In this document: one piece after another, positions 15,630 through 48,575 of the stretch | Numbering within the stretch: position 1 is the first letter of the stretch | Layout: each line of letters opens with the position of its first letter | Source of the DNA: Phycisphaerae bacterium | Lineage (GTDB): Bacteria > Planctomycetota > Phycisphaerae > SM23-33 | Length of the DNA stretch: 64,000 nt | Assembly (NCBI GenBank): GCA_009783465.1 | Contig: WRDM01000002.1 | Coordinates: 42,097-106,096, forward strand | Direction: 5' to 3' | Notes under the pieces: generated by a model | The model's input: only the letters and a program-made list of their open reading frames with translations | What the model was told of the DNA's origin: nothing | Database searches by the model: none | Position numbers and translations under genes: made by a program

Positions 15630-15719
15630 CGGAGAGGTCGGGATTCGAACCCGAGGTACGGCGTTAAACCGTACACCGGTTTAGCAAACCGGCGCTTTCA
15701 GCCGCTCAGCCACCTCTCC
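15630..15719 (-). tRNA. tRNA-Ser (anticodon GCU)
   Basis: Reverse complement GGAGAGGTGGCTGAGCGGCTGAAAGCGCCGGTTTGCTAAACCGGTGTACGGTTTAACGCCGTACCTCGGGTTCGAATCCCGACCTCTCCG: 7-bp acceptor stem, anticodon loop TTGCTAA, long variable arm, GGTTCGAATCC T-loop; architecture matches E. coli tRNA-Ser(GCU). Confidence 0.85.
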
Positions 15720-42522: not shown

Positions 42523-42651
42523 AGATGTCCCCTCAAAGAAACGGCACCTGTTCACCCCGACGCCACGAGAATGCGTTTGCCCTGAATCGCTGTGTCGAAA
42601 TCTTGAACTCCCGTTATCCCTATGGTAATCTGCGTAAATTCGGAGTCTTGT

Positions 42652-45168
42652 ATGAGCGATAAATCGTCATTGACGGCCGCTACGGCGGGATCGAAAGCCC
42701 ATCCGTGGATCTGGGTGGACGAGGACGTTCTCGGTCCAGGCCAGGTGGCATGGTTTCGGCTGCGATTCGATGCCCGCCGGGGCCAGGACGTGCGGTGGAC
42801 AGGCTTTGCCGACAGCATGTACACGTTGTATTTCAACGGGCGTGAAATGGGCGTCGGTCCGTGCACGGGATTGGCCGCCAAGCCGAGGCTGACGACGTGG
42901 AACCTGTCCTCGCTGATCTCCGACGGCAGCAACGTGCTGGCGTTGGAGGTGTGGTTCGACGACCCCAACTCGCCGCCGACCGACGTGGACATCATTCAAG
43001 CCGGCGTGCTGGGCTGGCTGAGCGTGGACGATCAGATCACGCCCACCGGCACGCAGTGGAAGGCCTGCCGGATCGCCCGCGCGGGGCTGGCCAGGAAAGA
43101 ACGCCGCAGTTTCGCCGCCCGGCGGATCACCGTGCTGGATCTGCGAGGCCGACGCAGCGACTGGCACGAACCCTTCTTCGACGACTCCCGCTGGGCGTCG
43201 GCCGTCGTGGTCGGCCGACCCGACCCGTACGAATTGCGGCACGACCCGCTCGGGCCTCTGACGTCGACGGTCCGTCCGGTGGCCTCCCTCATCGACGCGG
43301 GCGTCGCCACCGGCGGAGGCGAGGTGCAATTCGCCGACGACGTCGCCGCCCGGATGAAATCGCAGTCACACCGCAGCCTGGTGCGGAACGTCCACCGCTT
43401 CACCGTCCTCTCCACCGAGGAACGCGAAGGGCTGGCCATCTCACTGCCCCGCCCGCACCGCCTGCCGAACCTCCAGTGGACCAACGCCAACGCCGCCCCC
43501 ACAGGCCCGGTCCGCATCCCGCCCTGCGACGGCGAATTCTATCTCTGCGTCGACTTCGGCATGCAAACCAGCGGGCAGGTCTGGCTGGATATCGACTGCG
43601 CCAACACCCTCAGCGTCGACCTCGGCTACGCCGACCACCTCCGCAACGGCCGCGTCGATCCCCTGCTCCAACAGCACGCTTTCGCGGACCGCCTGATCCT
43701 CTCCAAGGGCCGGCAGTACGTCCATCTGCCGACCGATCGCGGCTTTCGCTACCTGCAAATGACCTTCAGCGGCGAGGCCACGCTGCACGAAATCTCCGTG
43801 CGCGAGCACGTCTATCCCATCGACACCCGGACACGGTTCGCGTGCAGCGACCCCACGCTCAACAGTGTGTTCGCGTTGGCCCAGACGACGGCGAGGCAGT
43901 GCTCGCTCCACTCGCACGTGGACAACGCCCGCCGCGAACGCCAGGGCTGGGGCGGGCCCGATCTCTACGCGCAGGCGCACGGCTTTTTCCACATCGCCGG
44001 CGACTTGCGGCTGACGCGGAAAATGCTCGAGGATTACGTCGATTCCTTCGACACGCACGGATTCATCCCGAATTTCTGCCCGTCGTCCATTCTGTTCCTC
44101 AAGTGGATCTCCGCGCACGACCTGTGGTTCCCTATCGTCGCGTGGGATTACATCATGTATTCCGACGACCGCGAGTTGGCCCCGCGCCTGCTGGCCGCCA
44201 GCCAGGCCGTCCTGGACTTCTACCGCCCCGACGCCAGCGGGCTGATCCTTCGCGCCCACGAAAACGCCTGCCGGTGGACCGAATGGAACATGAACTCCGC
44301 GTTCAACGCCTCGACGTGGGAGAATCTGCTGGCGATCGTCGCGTGGCGGTCCGTCTCGACCTTGCAGCGGTATCTCGGTGTGTCGGACGCCGACCAGGCC
44401 GCCGACGCCGCCAACGCGCTGGCCGCCGCCGTCAACGCCCGGCTGTGGCACGAGGAACACAACGCCCTCGCGCAGGGTACGATGGAAGACGGCAGCCTGT
44501 CGGATTTCTGTGCCCAGGTCGACAACGCCTTCGCGCTGCGGCACGACATCATCCCGCCCGACCGTGCCGAGGCGGCCTACCGATTCTGCGCCGGACGCAG
44601 CGGCACGTGGCCGACCTCGCGCAGCGGCTGGCAGGGCTACGGCCAAGGCGAACGCGTCCGCTACGACCCGCGAAAGCCCGTCGTCGCGGGCACGCCCTTC
44701 ACCAGTTCCCTGTGCGCCCAGACCATCGCGCACCTCGGCTCGCCCGCCGAGGTCGTCCAGTATCTGCGGTACAACTTCGGCGCCATGATCGACGAAGGCG
44801 AAGGCGGGCTGTGGGAGATGTGGCCGATTTTCATGCGCGAGGACGTGGCCTCGACGTGCTTCAGCCAGGGGTACGGCATCCACATCGCGGCGACGCTGAT
44901 TGGCGACGTGCTGGGGCTGCGTTTCGCCTCGCCGGGCGGTCGCGAGCTGACCTTCACGCCGCGGAACACCGGCCTGGCGTGGATCGAGGGCGAGGTGCAG
45001 ACCGTTCACGGCATCGCGCACGTCCGCCGCGAGGGCGCGAAATTCCAGTACAATCTCCCCGCCGGCGTGACGCTGCGGATCATCACGGGCCCGGCGAAAT
45101 CCGACCAGAAAATCACCGGCCAAGGCGTGGTAACCGTCCATGACCGACGTGCAAGCGACAGGCGATAG
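42652..45168 (+). CDS. glycoside hydrolase family 78-like (alpha-L-rhamnosidase-type six-hairpin) protein
   Basis: ORF trimmed to MSDKSSLTAATAG; DNARRERQGWGGPD resembles GH78 catalytic-domain DxxxRERxGWxGD motif; ~840 aa multi-domain. Confidence 0.5.
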   Translation: MSDKSSLTAATAGSKAHPWIWVDEDVLGPGQVAWFRLRFDARRGQDVRWTGFADSMYTLYFNGREMGVGPCTGLAAKPRLTTWNLSSLISDGSNVLALEVWFDDPNSPPTDVDIIQAGVLGWLSVDDQITPTGTQWKACRIARAGLARKERRSFAARRITVLDLRGRRSDWHEPFFDDSRWASAVVVGRPDPYELRHDPLGPLTSTVRPVASLIDAGVATGGGEVQFADDVAARMKSQSHRSLVRNVHRFTVLSTEEREGLAISLPRPHRLPNLQWTNANAAPTGPVRIPPCDGEFYLCVDFGMQTSGQVWLDIDCANTLSVDLGYADHLRNGRVDPLLQQHAFADRLILSKGRQYVHLPTDRGFRYLQMTFSGEATLHEISVREHVYPIDTRTRFACSDPTLNSVFALAQTTARQCSLHSHVDNARRERQGWGGPDLYAQAHGFFHIAGDLRLTRKMLEDYVDSFDTHGFIPNFCPSSILFLKWISAHDLWFPIVAWDYIMYSDDRELAPRLLAASQAVLDFYRPDASGLILRAHENACRWTEWNMNSAFNASTWENLLAIVAWRSVSTLQRYLGVSDADQAADAANALAAAVNARLWHEEHNALAQGTMEDGSLSDFCAQVDNAFALRHDIIPPDRAEAAYRFCAGRSGTWPTSRSGWQGYGQGERVRYDPRKPVVAGTPFTSSLCAQTIAHLGSPAEVVQYLRYNFGAMIDEGEGGLWEMWPIFMREDVASTCFSQGYGIHIAATLIGDVLGLRFASPGGRELTFTPRNTGLAWIEGEVQTVHGIAHVRREGAKFQYNLPAGVTLRIITGPAKSDQKITGQGVVTVHDRRASDRR

Positions 45169-46846
45169 CGATAGTGCGTTCATGGCCGCCGCGTTGGCGT
45201 GTGCGGCCTTGGGTCGCGGGCACGTCGAACCGAACCCGATGGTCGGCGCGGTGTTGGTACGCGACGGGCGGGAGATCTCCCGCGGGTTTCATCGGCGATT
45301 CGGCGGGCATCACGCGGAGGTGGAGGCCGTGCTCGCCGCCCGCGCCGCCGGGACCGACCTGCGCGGCGCGACGCTCTATGTCACGCTCGAGCCGTGCTGC
45401 CACACCAACAAAAAAACACCCCCCTGCGCGCCGATGCTCGCGGGGCTGGGCCTGCGACGCGTCGTCGTCGCGATGGAGGATCCCGACCCCAACGTGCGAG
45501 GCCGCGGATTGGCCATGCTTCGCGACGCGGGCGTGGCGATAACAACCGGCGTGTGCGAAGCGGCCGCGAAAACTCTGTTGCGTGCGTACGTCAAACTGCG
45601 AACGCAGGGCAGGCCGTGGGTGATCTGTAAATGGGCGCAGACCGCCGACGGCTATCTCGCGCTGCCGCCGTCGGCGGGGCGATGGATCAGCGGCGAGGCG
45701 TCGCGGCGGGACGTCCACCGCCTGCGGGGCCTGTGCGACGCGATCCTCGTCGGCGTGGGCACGGTGCTCGCCGACGACCCCCTGCTCAACAACCGCTCCG
45801 GCGAAGGCAAACAGCCAACCCGCATCGTGCTGGACACCCATCTCCGCACGCCGCCAACCAGCCGACTCGTCCAGACCGCCCGCGAGTTCCCGCTGATGAT
45901 CGTCACACAAGCACACAACGCGGGCGAGACGCCCGCGCCACGTAGCACGGGCGTCCCGCCCGTGAGTCGCATGGGCGTCTCGCCCATGCAACCGCAGCCG
46001 ATCAGCGAAACGTTCCTGATGCAAGCCGACGCGCTCCGCAACGCCGGCGTGGAACTCCTCGAACTGTCCACCGACGACAGCTTCGGTGGCAAAATCCACC
46101 TCCCCGCCCTGCTGGACGAACTGGGCCGGCGACGCATGACGTACCTGCTCGTCGAAGGCGGACACCGCGTGCTGCAACGTTTCCTCCACGCCGGCCTGGC
46201 GGACGAAATGCGAACGTACACCTCGCCACGAACCCTCCGCGACGAGTTCCTGTCCGAAGCCCTCGCCACGCTGCCGCACATGGACACACGGGAATTTCCG
46301 TCGCCAGGCATGGACTTGGAAGTCAGCCAGCCGCTCGGCGAGGATACGCTGCGCGGCTACGCGCGGGCAGCCGCGACCGTCCGTTCAGGCGAGGACAAGC
46401 GAAAACATGGCGAAGATGACGGCGGCGTTACTCGTCTGACAGGCAACGAATTAGGCGATGGCCTGGTGTTCGACCGGCTTTTGGAGGAAGCACGGAAGTA
46501 CGCCAGAACGAATTTTTTCGACAAAAAAGTGGCCATCGAGTCCGAAGGCGTTGAGGTTCTGGTTGCGATGAGTGGGATCAAACACACGCTGACAGCCGCT
46601 AAAACGAATGAGGATATCTATGCGGTTATCGCATTGCCTCAACTTCTACAGCGTGCCGTCAAGACAGGAGAATCGCCCGACAAACGCAACCGGAATAACG
46701 TCGTTGCCGTTGAGCGATATCGGGCTCCGCTCCGCATTGGCGACAATACGTACATGGCCGAGATGATTGTGAGAGTGGAGAAAAAAAGCACGAGAATGCT
46801 GGGCCATCTTCGCGTGTTCCACCACCAAGAACTGAAGGGCCTGTAG
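45140..46846 (+). CDS. ribD: riboflavin biosynthesis deaminase/reductase RibD with in-frame palindromic element and a ~150-aa low-GC C-terminal extension
   Basis: CMP/dCMP deaminase zinc motif (HAEVEA...PCCH...C) and RibD_C reductase domain; QAHNAGETPAPRSTGVPPVSRMGVSPMQPQP insert (45914-45988); residues after ~420 (nt ~46400-46846) have markedly lower GC and no RibD homology. Confidence 0.75.
   Translation: MTDVQATGDSDSAFMAAALACAALGRGHVEPNPMVGAVLVRDGREISRGFHRRFGGHHAEVEAVLAARAAGTDLRGATLYVTLEPCCHTNKKTPPCAPMLAGLGLRRVVVAMEDPDPNVRGRGLAMLRDAGVAITTGVCEAAAKTLLRAYVKLRTQGRPWVICKWAQTADGYLALPPSAGRWISGEASRRDVHRLRGLCDAILVGVGTVLADDPLLNNRSGEGKQPTRIVLDTHLRTPPTSRLVQTAREFPLMIVTQAHNAGETPAPRSTGVPPVSRMGVSPMQPQPISETFLMQADALRNAGVELLELSTDDSFGGKIHLPALLDELGRRRMTYLLVEGGHRVLQRFLHAGLADEMRTYTSPRTLRDEFLSEALATLPHMDTREFPSPGMDLEVSQPLGEDTLRGYARAAATVRSGEDKRKHGEDDGGVTRLTGNELGDGLVFDRLLEEARKYARTNFFDKKVAIESEGVEVLVAMSGIKHTLTAAKTNEDIYAVIALPQLLQRAVKTGESPDKRNRNNVVAVERYRAPLRIGDNTYMAEMIVRVEKKSTRMLGHLRVFHHQELKGL
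45914..45988 (-). repeat. in-frame palindromic element (IPE family, three hairpin units) inside ribD
   Basis: cacaacgcgggcgagacgcccgcgccacgtagcacgggcgtcccgcccgtgagtcgcatgggcgtctcgcccatgc; left end is exact reverse complement of the IPE terminal repeat. Confidence 0.8.
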
Positions 46847-47033
46847 ATCGTCGACCCACAAGCCCTTCCCGAAGCCGGGCACGCATATACGGTAGACATG
46901 AGCAGCCGCTCAAGCTATCCCGAGTCATTGCCCGGCTTCATAAACATTATCGGCTTCTACTCGGAAAAAATCAAGCCCGCACGGTCGTTTTCTTCCGCCG
47001 GGACGTTAGACTTTATAGATCGGGAAACCACCT

Positions 47034-48575
47034 ATGACAAACCGAGTGACGTTTTTCGTGGCGTTGGGGGCGGGCTGGTTGGTGTGTGTCGCGTTTTTCG
47101 TCGCGCGGGCGGAAACGCCGCCGGTCGCCGCGACAACTTCTACGCCGACCTCCGCACCGACGTCGCTGCCCTCGGCGGAAGCGGCGCGTATTGCGGAGTG
47201 GGTGGTGCAGTTGGGCGACGGCCGGGCCACCCGGCGGGAGCAGGCGTCGAAAGCGTTGGCCGACATCGGCCTGCCGGCGCTGCCGGCCCTTCGCGTCGCC
47301 ACCACCCACCGAGACCCCGAAGTCGCCGCCCGCGCCTCCCTCCTGATCACCTCCATCCGCGCCGCCGCCATCGACGACTGCCTGCTCTGGAAAACCGAAC
47401 TCCCCGTCAGCGTCTGGGGACACCGGGACACCCTCATCAACGACGAGCTGCTCTTCCTCCCAGGCCGTAACCAAACCGTCTTCGCCGTCAAACGAACCGA
47501 CGGCAGCGTCGTGTGGGAATACCAAGCCGACCACATGAACTCCCCGCGCCTGGAACTAGCCGGCAACACGCTGATCTGTAGTTCCTCGTCAGGGTTCTGT
47601 CCCATCACGGCCCTGGACGCGGCCACGGGAAAGGAACGTTGGCAGACCGAAGACCGTTACTTTCCCTACGACGCGGGGACGACGCATCTCCTCGTCGGGC
47701 AGGGCGACAATCTTCAGACGCTCATCGGCCTGTCGCTGGAGGACGGCACGGTCGCGTGGCGGCTGGATGTACCGGAGTTGTTCGGCAGCCAGTACGGCGG
47801 AATGCACAGCAGCGTGCTCACGAAGGACGCGTATCGGTTGACTTCCTATCACGGGGAGAACGCGAAGTCGGTCTCGTGGGGCATGGCGGCGGTCGACCCG
47901 GCCACCGGCGAAAAACAGTGGCTGCTGACCGGTCCGGCCGGCCCGAACTACGTCCGCGGCGGAGTCGGCGACTATCTGTACACCTTCACGCCGGACCCGA
48001 ACACGCAAACGCCAGCCGCCACGGTATACAGCCTGAAAACCGGAAAAAAACTGGAGAAAGGCCCGTACACGGTTGACGTCAAGGCCCTCACCGGCCACGG
48101 CGTTCTTGTCACGGACAAGATTCTGCTGAGCACCGCGTACGCCGGACTGGTCGCGTACGATCTCGCCAGCGGCAAGGAACTGTGGCGGTACGCGCCGTAC
48201 GGTGATCTCGACTTTTCCGTCAAACTCGACGGTCGAAAAATGCCTGTCGAGGACATCAAACGGACGCGGGCGCAACTGCGGGCATCGCACAGCTACGCCG
48301 TCATCACCAACATCACGGTGTGCGACGGCGAGGTGATTTTTCCCGTCGGTGACGGCCTGCTGGCGCTGGATCTCGCCACGGGCAAGCCGCTGTGGAAATA
48401 CCCGGCTGAGGAGTTCGTCGGCGGCGCGATGGTCGTGCGGGACGGCGTCGCCTACTTCAAAGCCGGCGGCGGCCAACTCGGAAACTTCCGTGGCGAGACC
48501 ATCATCCAAGGCGCCGAAAAAACCCACCTCTACGCCCTGGACCTGGCCAAGGCGAGGCAACTGGGCATGCCCTGA
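47034..48575 (+). CDS. secreted PQQ-like beta-propeller repeat protein with N-terminal HEAT-like segment
   Basis: Signal/TM (VTFFVALGAGWLVCVAFFVARA); repeated GxxxW(R/K)(Y/L) propeller blades (GTVAWRL, GEKQWLL, GKELWRY, GKPLWKY). Confidence 0.5.
   Translation: MTNRVTFFVALGAGWLVCVAFFVARAETPPVAATTSTPTSAPTSLPSAEAARIAEWVVQLGDGRATRREQASKALADIGLPALPALRVATTHRDPEVAARASLLITSIRAAAIDDCLLWKTELPVSVWGHRDTLINDELLFLPGRNQTVFAVKRTDGSVVWEYQADHMNSPRLELAGNTLICSSSSGFCPITALDAATGKERWQTEDRYFPYDAGTTHLLVGQGDNLQTLIGLSLEDGTVAWRLDVPELFGSQYGGMHSSVLTKDAYRLTSYHGENAKSVSWGMAAVDPATGEKQWLLTGPAGPNYVRGGVGDYLYTFTPDPNTQTPAATVYSLKTGKKLEKGPYTVDVKALTGHGVLVTDKILLSTAYAGLVAYDLASGKELWRYAPYGDLDFSVKLDGRKMPVEDIKRTRAQLRASHSYAVITNITVCDGEVIFPVGDGLLALDLATGKPLWKYPAEEFVGGAMVVRDGVAYFKAGGGQLGNFRGETIIQGAEKTHLYALDLAKARQLGMP

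Follow-up and report, generated by a model that had tools for sequence, protein, structure and literature searches.

Two kinds of described system bear on the locus analyzed here. Large polyvalent protein-associated domain 3 (LPD3) is known from the giant polyvalent proteins of phages and conjugative elements (PMC5512222); domains of this kind (LPDs) are also found on their own in the neighborhood of phage structural genes (Iyer, Burroughs, Anand, de Souza, Aravind 2017, PMC5512222), and the solo forms have been proposed as facilitators of invasion, not toxins (PMC5512222). In Bacillus subtilis, the RNA SR6 promotes RNase III decay of the yonT toxin mRNA (PMC5848175). The locus under study lies in a stretch of 64,000 nucleotides of contig WRDM01000002.1 from a Phycisphaerae bacterium, called here the window, and consists of the gene ribD, whose frame runs on into a segment of low guanine plus cytosine (GC) content encoding an LPD3 domain, and of a predicted small RNA gene convergent with it. 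We give about an even chance to the explanation that this is a phage-origin, RNA-controlled LPD3 cassette of about 0.6 kb that lodged behind ribD, was fused to it in-frame, and is under control like that seen in toxin-antitoxin (TA) systems of type I. The parts of the locus, in window coordinates, are as follows.

45140-46846, plus strand: RibD-LPD3 open reading frame (ORF), 568 aa, without internal stop.
45140-46363, plus strand: RibD proper, residues 1-408, deaminase and reductase domains, apparently intact (TIGR00326, Pfam, and alignment with relatives).
46364-46390, plus strand: in-frame, GC-rich spacer R409-G417, 27 nt, sitting where relatives have the ribD stop codon.
46391-46846, plus strand: LPD3 module, E418-L568 and the stop codon TAG (Pfam, PHROGs, freestanding homologues, and an AlphaFold2 model).
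46481-46792, plus strand: Pfam LPD3 core (PF18798), residues 448-551.
46391-46975, no single strand: whole low-GC cassette, i.e., LPD3 ORF, antisense RNA gene, and promoter, 585 bp (530-650 bp at other loci).
46826-46939, minus strand: small RNA predicted to be antisense to and convergent with LPD3, about 114 nt long and folding into two stem-loops, its 5' and 3' ends being predictions.
46871-46939, minus strand: stem-loop 1, closing helix formed by 46939-46929 with 46881-46871.
46834-46868, minus strand: stem-loop 2 (terminator), formed by 46868-46853 with 46849-46834, and spanning the LPD3 stop TAG at 46844-46846.
About 46833-46826, minus strand: U-rich tail of the predicted RNA.
46946-46975, minus strand: predicted small-RNA promoter of the sigma-70 type, with -35 TTGATT (46974-46969), a 17-nt spacer, and -10 GATAAT (46951-46946).

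The 568-aa ORF falls into three parts, namely RibD (residues 1-408), a 9-codon GC-rich spacer, and a 151-codon low-GC segment. Along the window, the GC content changes from 0.66-0.73 to 0.50-0.56 between about 46400 and 47100. The ribD part has a GC content of 0.687 and a GC content at third codon positions (GC3) of 0.825; the corresponding values are 0.529 and 0.605 for the LPD3 segment (46391-46846), and 0.649 and 0.817 for the gene after the cassette. A sequence-only reading of this DNA had described a low-GC, in-frame tail on ribD with no stop before it, and this was borne out (53% vs. 69% GC), the quoted peptide also being correct. It is very improbable that the frame is an artefact or a product of decay, such as a chimera made in assembly, a ribD stop lost to a sequencing error, or a dead pseudogene remnant. 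The window does come from a metagenome-assembled genome, and the fusion was seen in one genome only. However, a separately assembled ENA contig was 100% identical over 21.7 kb and contained the same 568-aa fused frame, indicating that this is not the error of a single assembly, even if both assemblies may come from the same reads. Moreover, both flanks are syntenic host genes, with a rhamnosidase-like gene beside ribD as in the related locus L007, no frameshift was found in the 151 LPD3 codons, the ratio of nonsynonymous to synonymous substitution rates (dN/dS) is about 0.25, and the antisense unit is intact. The NCBI entry of the fused protein, MCL2700225.1, carries the annotation of bifunctional RibD only.

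The analysis of the RibD portion showed a score of 272.4 bits against TIGR00326 (the bifunctional RibD equivalog, cutoff 156.35), and Pfam matches to dCMP_cyt_deam_1 at residues 11-112 and to RibD_C at residues 159-366. The zinc motifs HAE and PC..C were invariant in the alignment with relatives, and RibD itself looks functional on these grounds. By both protein and DNA alignment, RibD homology ended at G406-Y407-A408 (46355-46363), i.e., at residue 408, earlier than the residue 420 or so at which the sequence-only reading had placed the complete protein. The nearest RibDs (73%, 68%, and 71% identical; lengths of 417, 426, and 375 aa) terminate with the same GYA or shortly beyond it, and in the ribD of the relative L008 the codon after GYA is TGA, where the window has CGG. 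In these alignments, the spacer at 46364-46390 showed homology neither to ribD of relatives nor to LPD3 genes, and it is probably former intergenic DNA. Among the 120 best of 7873 RibD homologues, PF18798 was found in the query only. Judged by these comparisons, the 160-residue C-terminal extension is not part of the RibD family, and tail homologues are clearly not a universal part of RibD, the outcome that would have overturned the proposal of a foreign tail. A selected extension of RibD, e.g., a regulatory or localization domain for riboflavin synthesis, would be in line with the intact frame and with the retention of both the LPD3 family-invariant residues and the RibD motifs. Yet the tail is a singleton among those 120 homologues, and the closest relatives lack it; LPD3 is mostly freestanding and is also fused to the unrelated ScpA and CobA/HemD; and the tail brings its own antisense RNA gene. 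We consider such an extension hardly credible. As separate observations on RibD, this clade has a variable Pro/Gly/Ala-rich insertion of about 45-60 residues in the reductase domain (window 45910-46060, residues ~258-305), which is common to the homologues P0005 and P0006 and absent from more distant RibDs, and the contig of the nearest RibD relative also encodes a DUF1559/N_methyl protein, a possible hint of a Planctomycetota host; the source samples are possibly from termite gut.

The tail alone scored 65.6 bits against PF18798 (Large polyvalent protein-associated domain 3; cutoff 27), and the full protein 61.9 bits. In PHROGs, the tail matched phrog_18222 (E 8e-18), within a 2118-position profile of unassigned function. 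Freestanding proteins of 152-163 aa were 47-53% identical to it over 94-99% of its length, and this homology extends from E418 (46391) through to the stop. The AlphaFold2 model of the tail (pLDDT 87.5, pTM 0.81) is that of a soluble α/β domain, and it matched LPD3-annotated phage polyvalent proteins in BFVD with TM scores of 0.64-0.79 (best 0.77-0.79), a root-mean-square deviation of ~2-3 Å, and E values from 2e-9 to 1e-6. The large polyvalent protein that is the usual setting of LPD3 is missing here, the domain being fused only to RibD in chromosomal housekeeping surroundings; this setting is no requirement for membership in the domain family, as solo forms are known. The dN/dS of LPD3 was 0.2-0.27 where dS was unsaturated, and by this measure the domain is under purifying selection. 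In addition, the window copy keeps every subfamily-invariant residue over its 151 codons. On this evidence, the tail is a foreign, horizontally acquired, phage-related LPD3 domain. The earlier suggestion of horizontally acquired, phage-derived cargo thus held, since the segment is an LPD3 domain that forms a low-GC islet in every carrier genome and is absent from the other RibDs examined. The further suggestion of a toxin- or nuclease-like domain was neither confirmed nor contradicted. It had also been left open whether the tail is fused or is an independent small gene starting at the Met of MSGIKHT. The relatives are indeed independent small genes; however, an independent start at this Met, which lies at 46568-46570 and not at about 46575, was rejected here, as it would remove 59 conserved residues, including the family-invariant L21, G22, L30, and G53 and the near-invariant Y37, A38, and F42. 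The window has no ATG, GTG, or TTG where the homologues start; in this genome, LPD3 can be produced only in fusion with RibD or by initiation at a Met inside ribD (46310).

The LPD3 family is small, with 347 clusters at E ≤ 1e-3 among 1.84 billion representatives, comprising giants of 1000-4700 aa and short solo proteins; only 4 clusters, at E ≤ 1e-30, make up the subfamily of the window copy. The proteins most closely related to the tail are 147-182 aa long, match it over 94-99% of its length, and are freestanding; their genes lie 0-130 nt behind co-oriented genes, mostly housekeeping ones, in the following arrangements.

L001: pgpH, 16 nt, LPD3, then ybeY.
L006: dapB, 59 nt, LPD3, then a ROK gene.
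L076: flavoprotein gene, 16 nt, LPD3.
L081: hisG, 0 nt, LPD3.
L078: ruvC, 89 nt, LPD3, then rsfS.
L004: uncharacterised ORF, about 130 nt, LPD3.

In every locus, the LPD3 gene is a low-GC islet (0.42-0.47 against flanks of 0.60-0.67; 0.53 for the window copy). Two more in-frame fusions have arisen independently, one of a complete ScpA followed by LPD3 (P0129) and the other of a CobA/HemD enzyme followed by LPD3 (L153, 722 aa). In L081, the LPD3 ATG abuts the hisG stop codon in frame, so that a single mutation there would yield a fusion. LPD3 peptide patterns matched no subfamily relative in the 185,579 species genomes of GTDB, in which the window's own genome is apparently no species representative, and 64 promoter-pattern matches obtained from the same database were rejected, all being chance, promoter-only matches in AT-rich DNA. 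Two further observations concern the relatives. L006 (1537-1800) and L076 (1367-1630) have in common the LPD3 cassette, its right flank, and a downstream ROK-family gene, and differ in the upstream gene (dapB vs. flavoprotein), and the left cassette edge may be a rearrangement breakpoint in these loci. A 275-aa protein of the representative library, P0135, combines an InPase fragment with LPD3, both of them domains of phage-type polyvalent proteins, and may be a minimal polyvalent protein.

The second component of the cassette is the predicted small RNA. Its promoter reads CTTGATTTTT-N13-CGATAAT on the minus strand. In a promoter scan of 46200-47200, the minus-strand TTGATT-17-GATAAT was the only promoter-like site, and it was unique in the window even with 3 mismatches permitted. 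Both CTTGATTTTT and CGATAAT were invariant in the 8/8 loci found via protein homology, in which synonymous sites of the ORF differ at 55-83%. In the DNA alignment of the loci, the interval from the last ~20 nt of the ORF to ~130 nt past the stop was more conserved than the ORF and contained compensatory changes. The predicted RNA had a minimum free energy of -62.4 kcal/mol (z -5.9); the minus strand folded better than the plus strand in 8/8 loci, and the consensus fold reached -58 kcal/mol on the minus strand vs. -33 kcal/mol on the plus strand. A terminator-like site was predicted on the minus strand, and none on the plus strand within 46200-47200. The final codons of LPD3, together with its stop codon, supply the hairpin of this small-RNA terminator. 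A conserved minus-strand promoter, an RNA with two stem-loops, and a terminator over the stop codon were present at every subfamily locus, and an unpaired CUACC(G/A)UA motif was conserved in stem-loop 1 of the long forms. When covariation was analyzed in a ten-locus alignment, 94.4% of cells paired and double changes were found at 17 of 25 pairs; the covariation score was 0.43, against 0.18 in shuffles (0/500) and ≤0.09 in slid controls. There were 19 G·U cells vs. 2 A·C cells, and this excess, together with the covariation, indicates that the folded molecule is the minus-strand RNA. A covariance model gave 147.7 bits, with one full-length copy in the window. An Rfam scan of 46200-47200 returned best matches with E values of 2.6-9, far under the gathering scores, and no Rfam match was found at the RNA position in 8 other loci either. 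The low GC content past the LPD3 stop, which the sequence-only reading had followed through 46847-47033, is real (0.535) and is not simply more cargo; the conserved antisense RNA gene and its promoter lie there and account for it.

Cross-locus DNA conservation extends from the LPD3 start to the -35 box, and the small-RNA promoter marks the right-hand edge of the conserved cassette, whose GC content is 0.53 in the window and 0.42-0.47 elsewhere, with flanks of 0.60-0.69. This raises the alternative that the 3' element acts as DNA, namely as the recombination end of a non-autonomous cassette (an attC-like or IS200/IS605-like hairpin) in which the promoter would be a recombinase binding site. The invariant 30-nt block does sit exactly at the edge of conservation, hairpins are typical of single-strand recombination sites, and the cassette is evidently mobile, yet it encodes no recombinase. 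However, the G·U to A·C ratio and the better folding of the minus strand in all eight loci argue for a one-strand RNA, the invariant bases fit -35 and -10 hexamers at the canonical 17-nt spacing, with a hairpin and U-rich tail at small-RNA distance, and no matching left end, target-site duplication, or conserved attC core site was found across the loci. We regard a DNA-level role as improbable, and an RNA role and a DNA-level role are not mutually exclusive; both could hold together. The specific candidate of an integron attC cassette was rejected, since the core sites RYYYAAC/GTTRRRY were not conserved in the 3' element across loci, the elements are single copies (one in the 64-kb window), and no integrase is nearby. 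A weakly shared TTTTCYTCC motif was observed 10-30 nt beyond the -35 box, at 46976-47000 in the window and in the right flanks of L001, L006, and L076; on the minus strand, where it reads GGAGGAAAA and lies upstream of that promoter, it may represent an UP-like element or a piece of the cassette end.

In the explanation that we prefer, a phage-origin cassette of about 0.6 kb would have lodged directly behind ribD. Its LPD3 gene would have no conserved promoter of its own and would be expressed by read-through or coupling from the co-oriented host gene. Upstream of the LPD3 start, no sequence was conserved across the loci, and in L001, L076, and L081 the gap to the upstream gene (0-16 nt) is too short for a promoter, although the upstream gene itself may contain one. 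The small RNA would be convergent and cis-encoded, with a strong promoter of its own. As no plus-strand terminator is predicted ahead of the small-RNA gene, the sense mRNA would be perfectly complementary to the small RNA over about 110 nt; their pairing would give a long duplex, leading to decay of the RNase III type or to a block at the end of translation, and in this way the output of LPD3, here of RibD-LPD3, would be kept low, in the manner of 3'-overlapping type I TA pairs like yonT/SR6 (PMC5848175). In the window, the ribD stop codon and the LPD3 start codon are both missing, which would make LPD3 a C-terminal extension of an otherwise normal RibD. The module would be a selfish passenger of housekeeping operons, placed so tightly behind their genes that the fusion came about by accident.

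The same promoter was found beyond the subfamily. The viral contig IMGVR_UViG_3300010167_000033 (L063, 2698-3047), from the same sample as L001, contains an identical 30-nt promoter, here driving another structured RNA, about 110 nt long, with a terminator that extends over the 3' end of a convergent 72-aa ORF. Together, this RNA and ORF make up a low-GC islet in a phage head module, with the portal gene on one side and the MuF gene on the other, and look like a sister cassette with other cargo. L063 was the only real one among 67 matches of a looser, first promoter pattern in viral contigs. A reading of its ORF, which resembles PBECR3, as a frameshifted portal C-terminus was rejected, since the hybrid sequence left the Pfam match no better. 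In a 70%-GC genome (L192, 6620-6926), an RNA of the L063 type with an intact promoter lies between the genes of a large Fe-S protein and a PQQ-like beta-propeller protein, beside what is only a C-terminal remnant of the PBECR3-like ORF (…RTMWKEKAKPTE…), and may be an antisense RNA orphaned by decay of its cargo. In a more distant LPD3 subgroup (L118, L163, and L153), the same promoter is combined with an RNA of one hairpin. A solo LPD3 ~26% identical to the window tail, which lies in a phage structural module of an unrelated sample (L267), is accompanied on the minus strand by an analogous TTGCTT-17-TATAAT, a long hairpin, and a U-tract ending at the LPD3 stop, the next gene being co-directional. 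Another distant solo LPD3, L266, was set aside as uninformative, since its terminator could belong to a convergent downstream gene. The design shared by L063, by L118, L163, and L153, and by L267 indicates that the interlocking of cargo ORF and convergent small RNA predates the subfamily of the window and is phage-associated.

Two side observations were made at these loci. In L121 (2220-2330), from a different sample and with no LPD3, the same promoter type (CTTGATTTTTTCGGGGATGTAACCGATAAT) drives a short RNA ending in a hairpin, and the co-directional gene immediately downstream is NYN-domain-like by eye only. In L163 (3679-3754), a long near-perfect palindrome gave sub-threshold matches to several miRNA-precursor models. 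It is found next to the cassette but not in it, upstream of the promoter of the small RNA, and adjoins the convergent gene, read as sodA from its translation alone; this palindrome is probably a bidirectional terminator.

The comparisons demonstrate the anatomy of the cassette, its foreign origin, the selection on both components, their recurrent placement behind co-oriented genes, and the fusion events. As for its function, the PBECR3-like sister cargo and the selfish distribution favor a toxin-antitoxin-like reading, PBECR3 being a predicted RNase domain of polyvalent proteins. Several points weigh against this reading. The match of the 72-aa ORF of L063 to PBECR3 is weak, at 25 bits vs. a Pfam cutoff of 30, and covers half of the domain only. 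LPD3 is without a function in the paper that defined it and is absent from the potentially enzymatic LPDs given there (PMC5512222). The tail model had no significant match among solved structures, and PADLOC gave no match to a defence system or TA family. Classical type I toxins are small hydrophobic membrane peptides (<~60 aa) with a promoter of their own, unlike the soluble α/β LPD3 of ~150 aa found here (147-182 aa among the cargo proteins), and this argues for caution. The promoter, the RNA ends, and the sense read-through are predictions from the DNA; the U-tract after the terminator hairpin of the window (AGUUCUUGGU) is weak; the invariance of the promoter in L118, L153, and L163 holds by construction, these loci having been found by the promoter pattern; and the alignment used for covariation was fitted to the model, with those 3/10 loci in it. 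Searches across the loci for target-site duplications, terminal inverted repeats, a conserved left end, and a mobility mechanism found none.

These points bear on a serious, if rather unlikely, alternative, in which the cassette and its antisense RNA are real and the system is not TA-like. LPD3 would then be a benign accessory derived from phage polyvalent proteins, e.g., for anti-defence or superinfection exclusion, and the RNA a cis-antisense regulator, a trans-acting RNA that is itself the selected cargo, or a convergent-transcription insulator for the downstream host gene. In agreement with this, LPD3 has no assigned function, and solo LPDs have been proposed as invasion facilitators (PMC5512222); the same promoter type drives RNAs that are not beside LPD3 in L063, L192, and L121; the unpaired CUACC(G/A)UA of stem-loop 1 could be a trans-acting seed; and no PADLOC or TA-family match was obtained. 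However, even among cargo proteins that are only ~30% identical, the RNA and the 3' end of the cargo ORF are always physically interlocked, the terminator enclosing the stop codon, which points to cis action, and addiction-type modules typically spread in this low-GC, seemingly selfish way behind essential genes that are unrelated to one another.

Extending the TA-like reading, we tentatively propose, as a possibility clearly weaker than the reading of the locus itself, that the LPD3 and antisense-RNA cassettes and their sister cassettes (e.g., the PBECR3-like one of L063) belong to an unrecognised class of RNA-guarded selfish mini-elements. These would settle in essential genes at the stop codon or beside it, rely on the host gene for being transcribed and translated, and be restrained by a dedicated convergent small RNA, giving a type I-like addiction in which a folded phage effector domain would be the toxin; their recurrent in-frame capture by RibD, ScpA, and CobA/HemD would be an entry route for phage effector domains into cellular proteins.

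LPD3 and 3'-overlapping antisense control are each already known. In Rfam, Pfam, PADLOC, and the literature searched, we found no description of the combination of LPD3 with an antisense RNA or of this small-RNA family, nor of lodging at the 3' ends of housekeeping genes or of repeated in-frame capture by enzymes. LPD3 belongs to a set of forty domains of phage polyvalent proteins described as function-elusive, and with this locus it gains its first experimentally tractable context, a minimal two-gene module under apparent RNA control. The small-RNA family, absent from Rfam, has an invariant promoter and good covariation, and comes from an uncultured lineage with almost no known regulatory RNAs. 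Three independent in-frame captures of one foreign domain (by RibD, ScpA, and CobA/HemD) offer a natural example of how fusions arise from tightly packed hitch-hiking cassettes, and the deposition of MCL2700225.1 simply as bifunctional RibD is a warning for annotation. If LPD3 proves toxic, type I TA would extend to a new, non-peptide class of toxins.

The surroundings of the cassette in the window include the following features.

46976-47033, no strand assigned: intergenic stretch that separates the cassette from the gene following it in the same direction.
47034-48575: next co-directional gene, encoding a PQQ_2/BamB-like beta-propeller protein.

Upstream, the 3' end of the rhamnosidase-like gene (42622-45168) is overlapped for 29 nt by the start of ribD (45140-45168); the same gene pair is syntenic in L007, where a 176-nt gap separates the genes. 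A tRNA gene at 15630-15719 on the minus strand was the sole Rfam match at gathering score in the 64-kb window.

When compared with known systems, the domain is the LPD3 of phage polyvalent proteins (PMC5512222) by hidden Markov model and predicted fold. Unlike LPD3 in those injected proteins of 1000-4700 aa, it occurs here as a chromosomal solo gene or as a C-terminal fusion to RibD, and it is coupled to an antisense RNA gene that is not described in that paper. The predicted RNA resembles that of the yonT/SR6 type I TA system in being a cis antisense RNA of ~100 nt with its own promoter, convergent with the protein gene and overlapping its 3' end. Compactness and horizontal mobility are also shared with loci of the yonT/SR6 class, which are prophage-associated. 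We take bsrG/SR4 and txpA/RatA to belong to the same 3'-overlapping class of type I TA. In contrast to yonT/SR6, no conserved sense promoter was found here, and the module lies behind housekeeping genes, to which it is sometimes fused. SymE/SymR of E. coli is a type I system in which a cis-antisense RNA represses a folded toxin of ~110 aa; the fold of SymE is AbrB-like, its own promoter makes it SOS-induced, and SymR overlaps the symE 5' end and ribosome-binding site. The cargo of the present cassettes is likewise a folded protein and no membrane peptide; unlike in SymE/SymR, with its 5' overlap and own promoter, the RNA overlaps the 3' end of the cargo gene. Finally, phage morons are short inserts between two co-directional genes that deviate in GC content and bring a promoter and a terminator of their own. 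The L063 cassette between the portal and MuF genes is moron-like in its placement; unlike in morons, the promoter and terminator bracket the antisense RNA and not the protein gene, and most copies reside in bacterial housekeeping operons.

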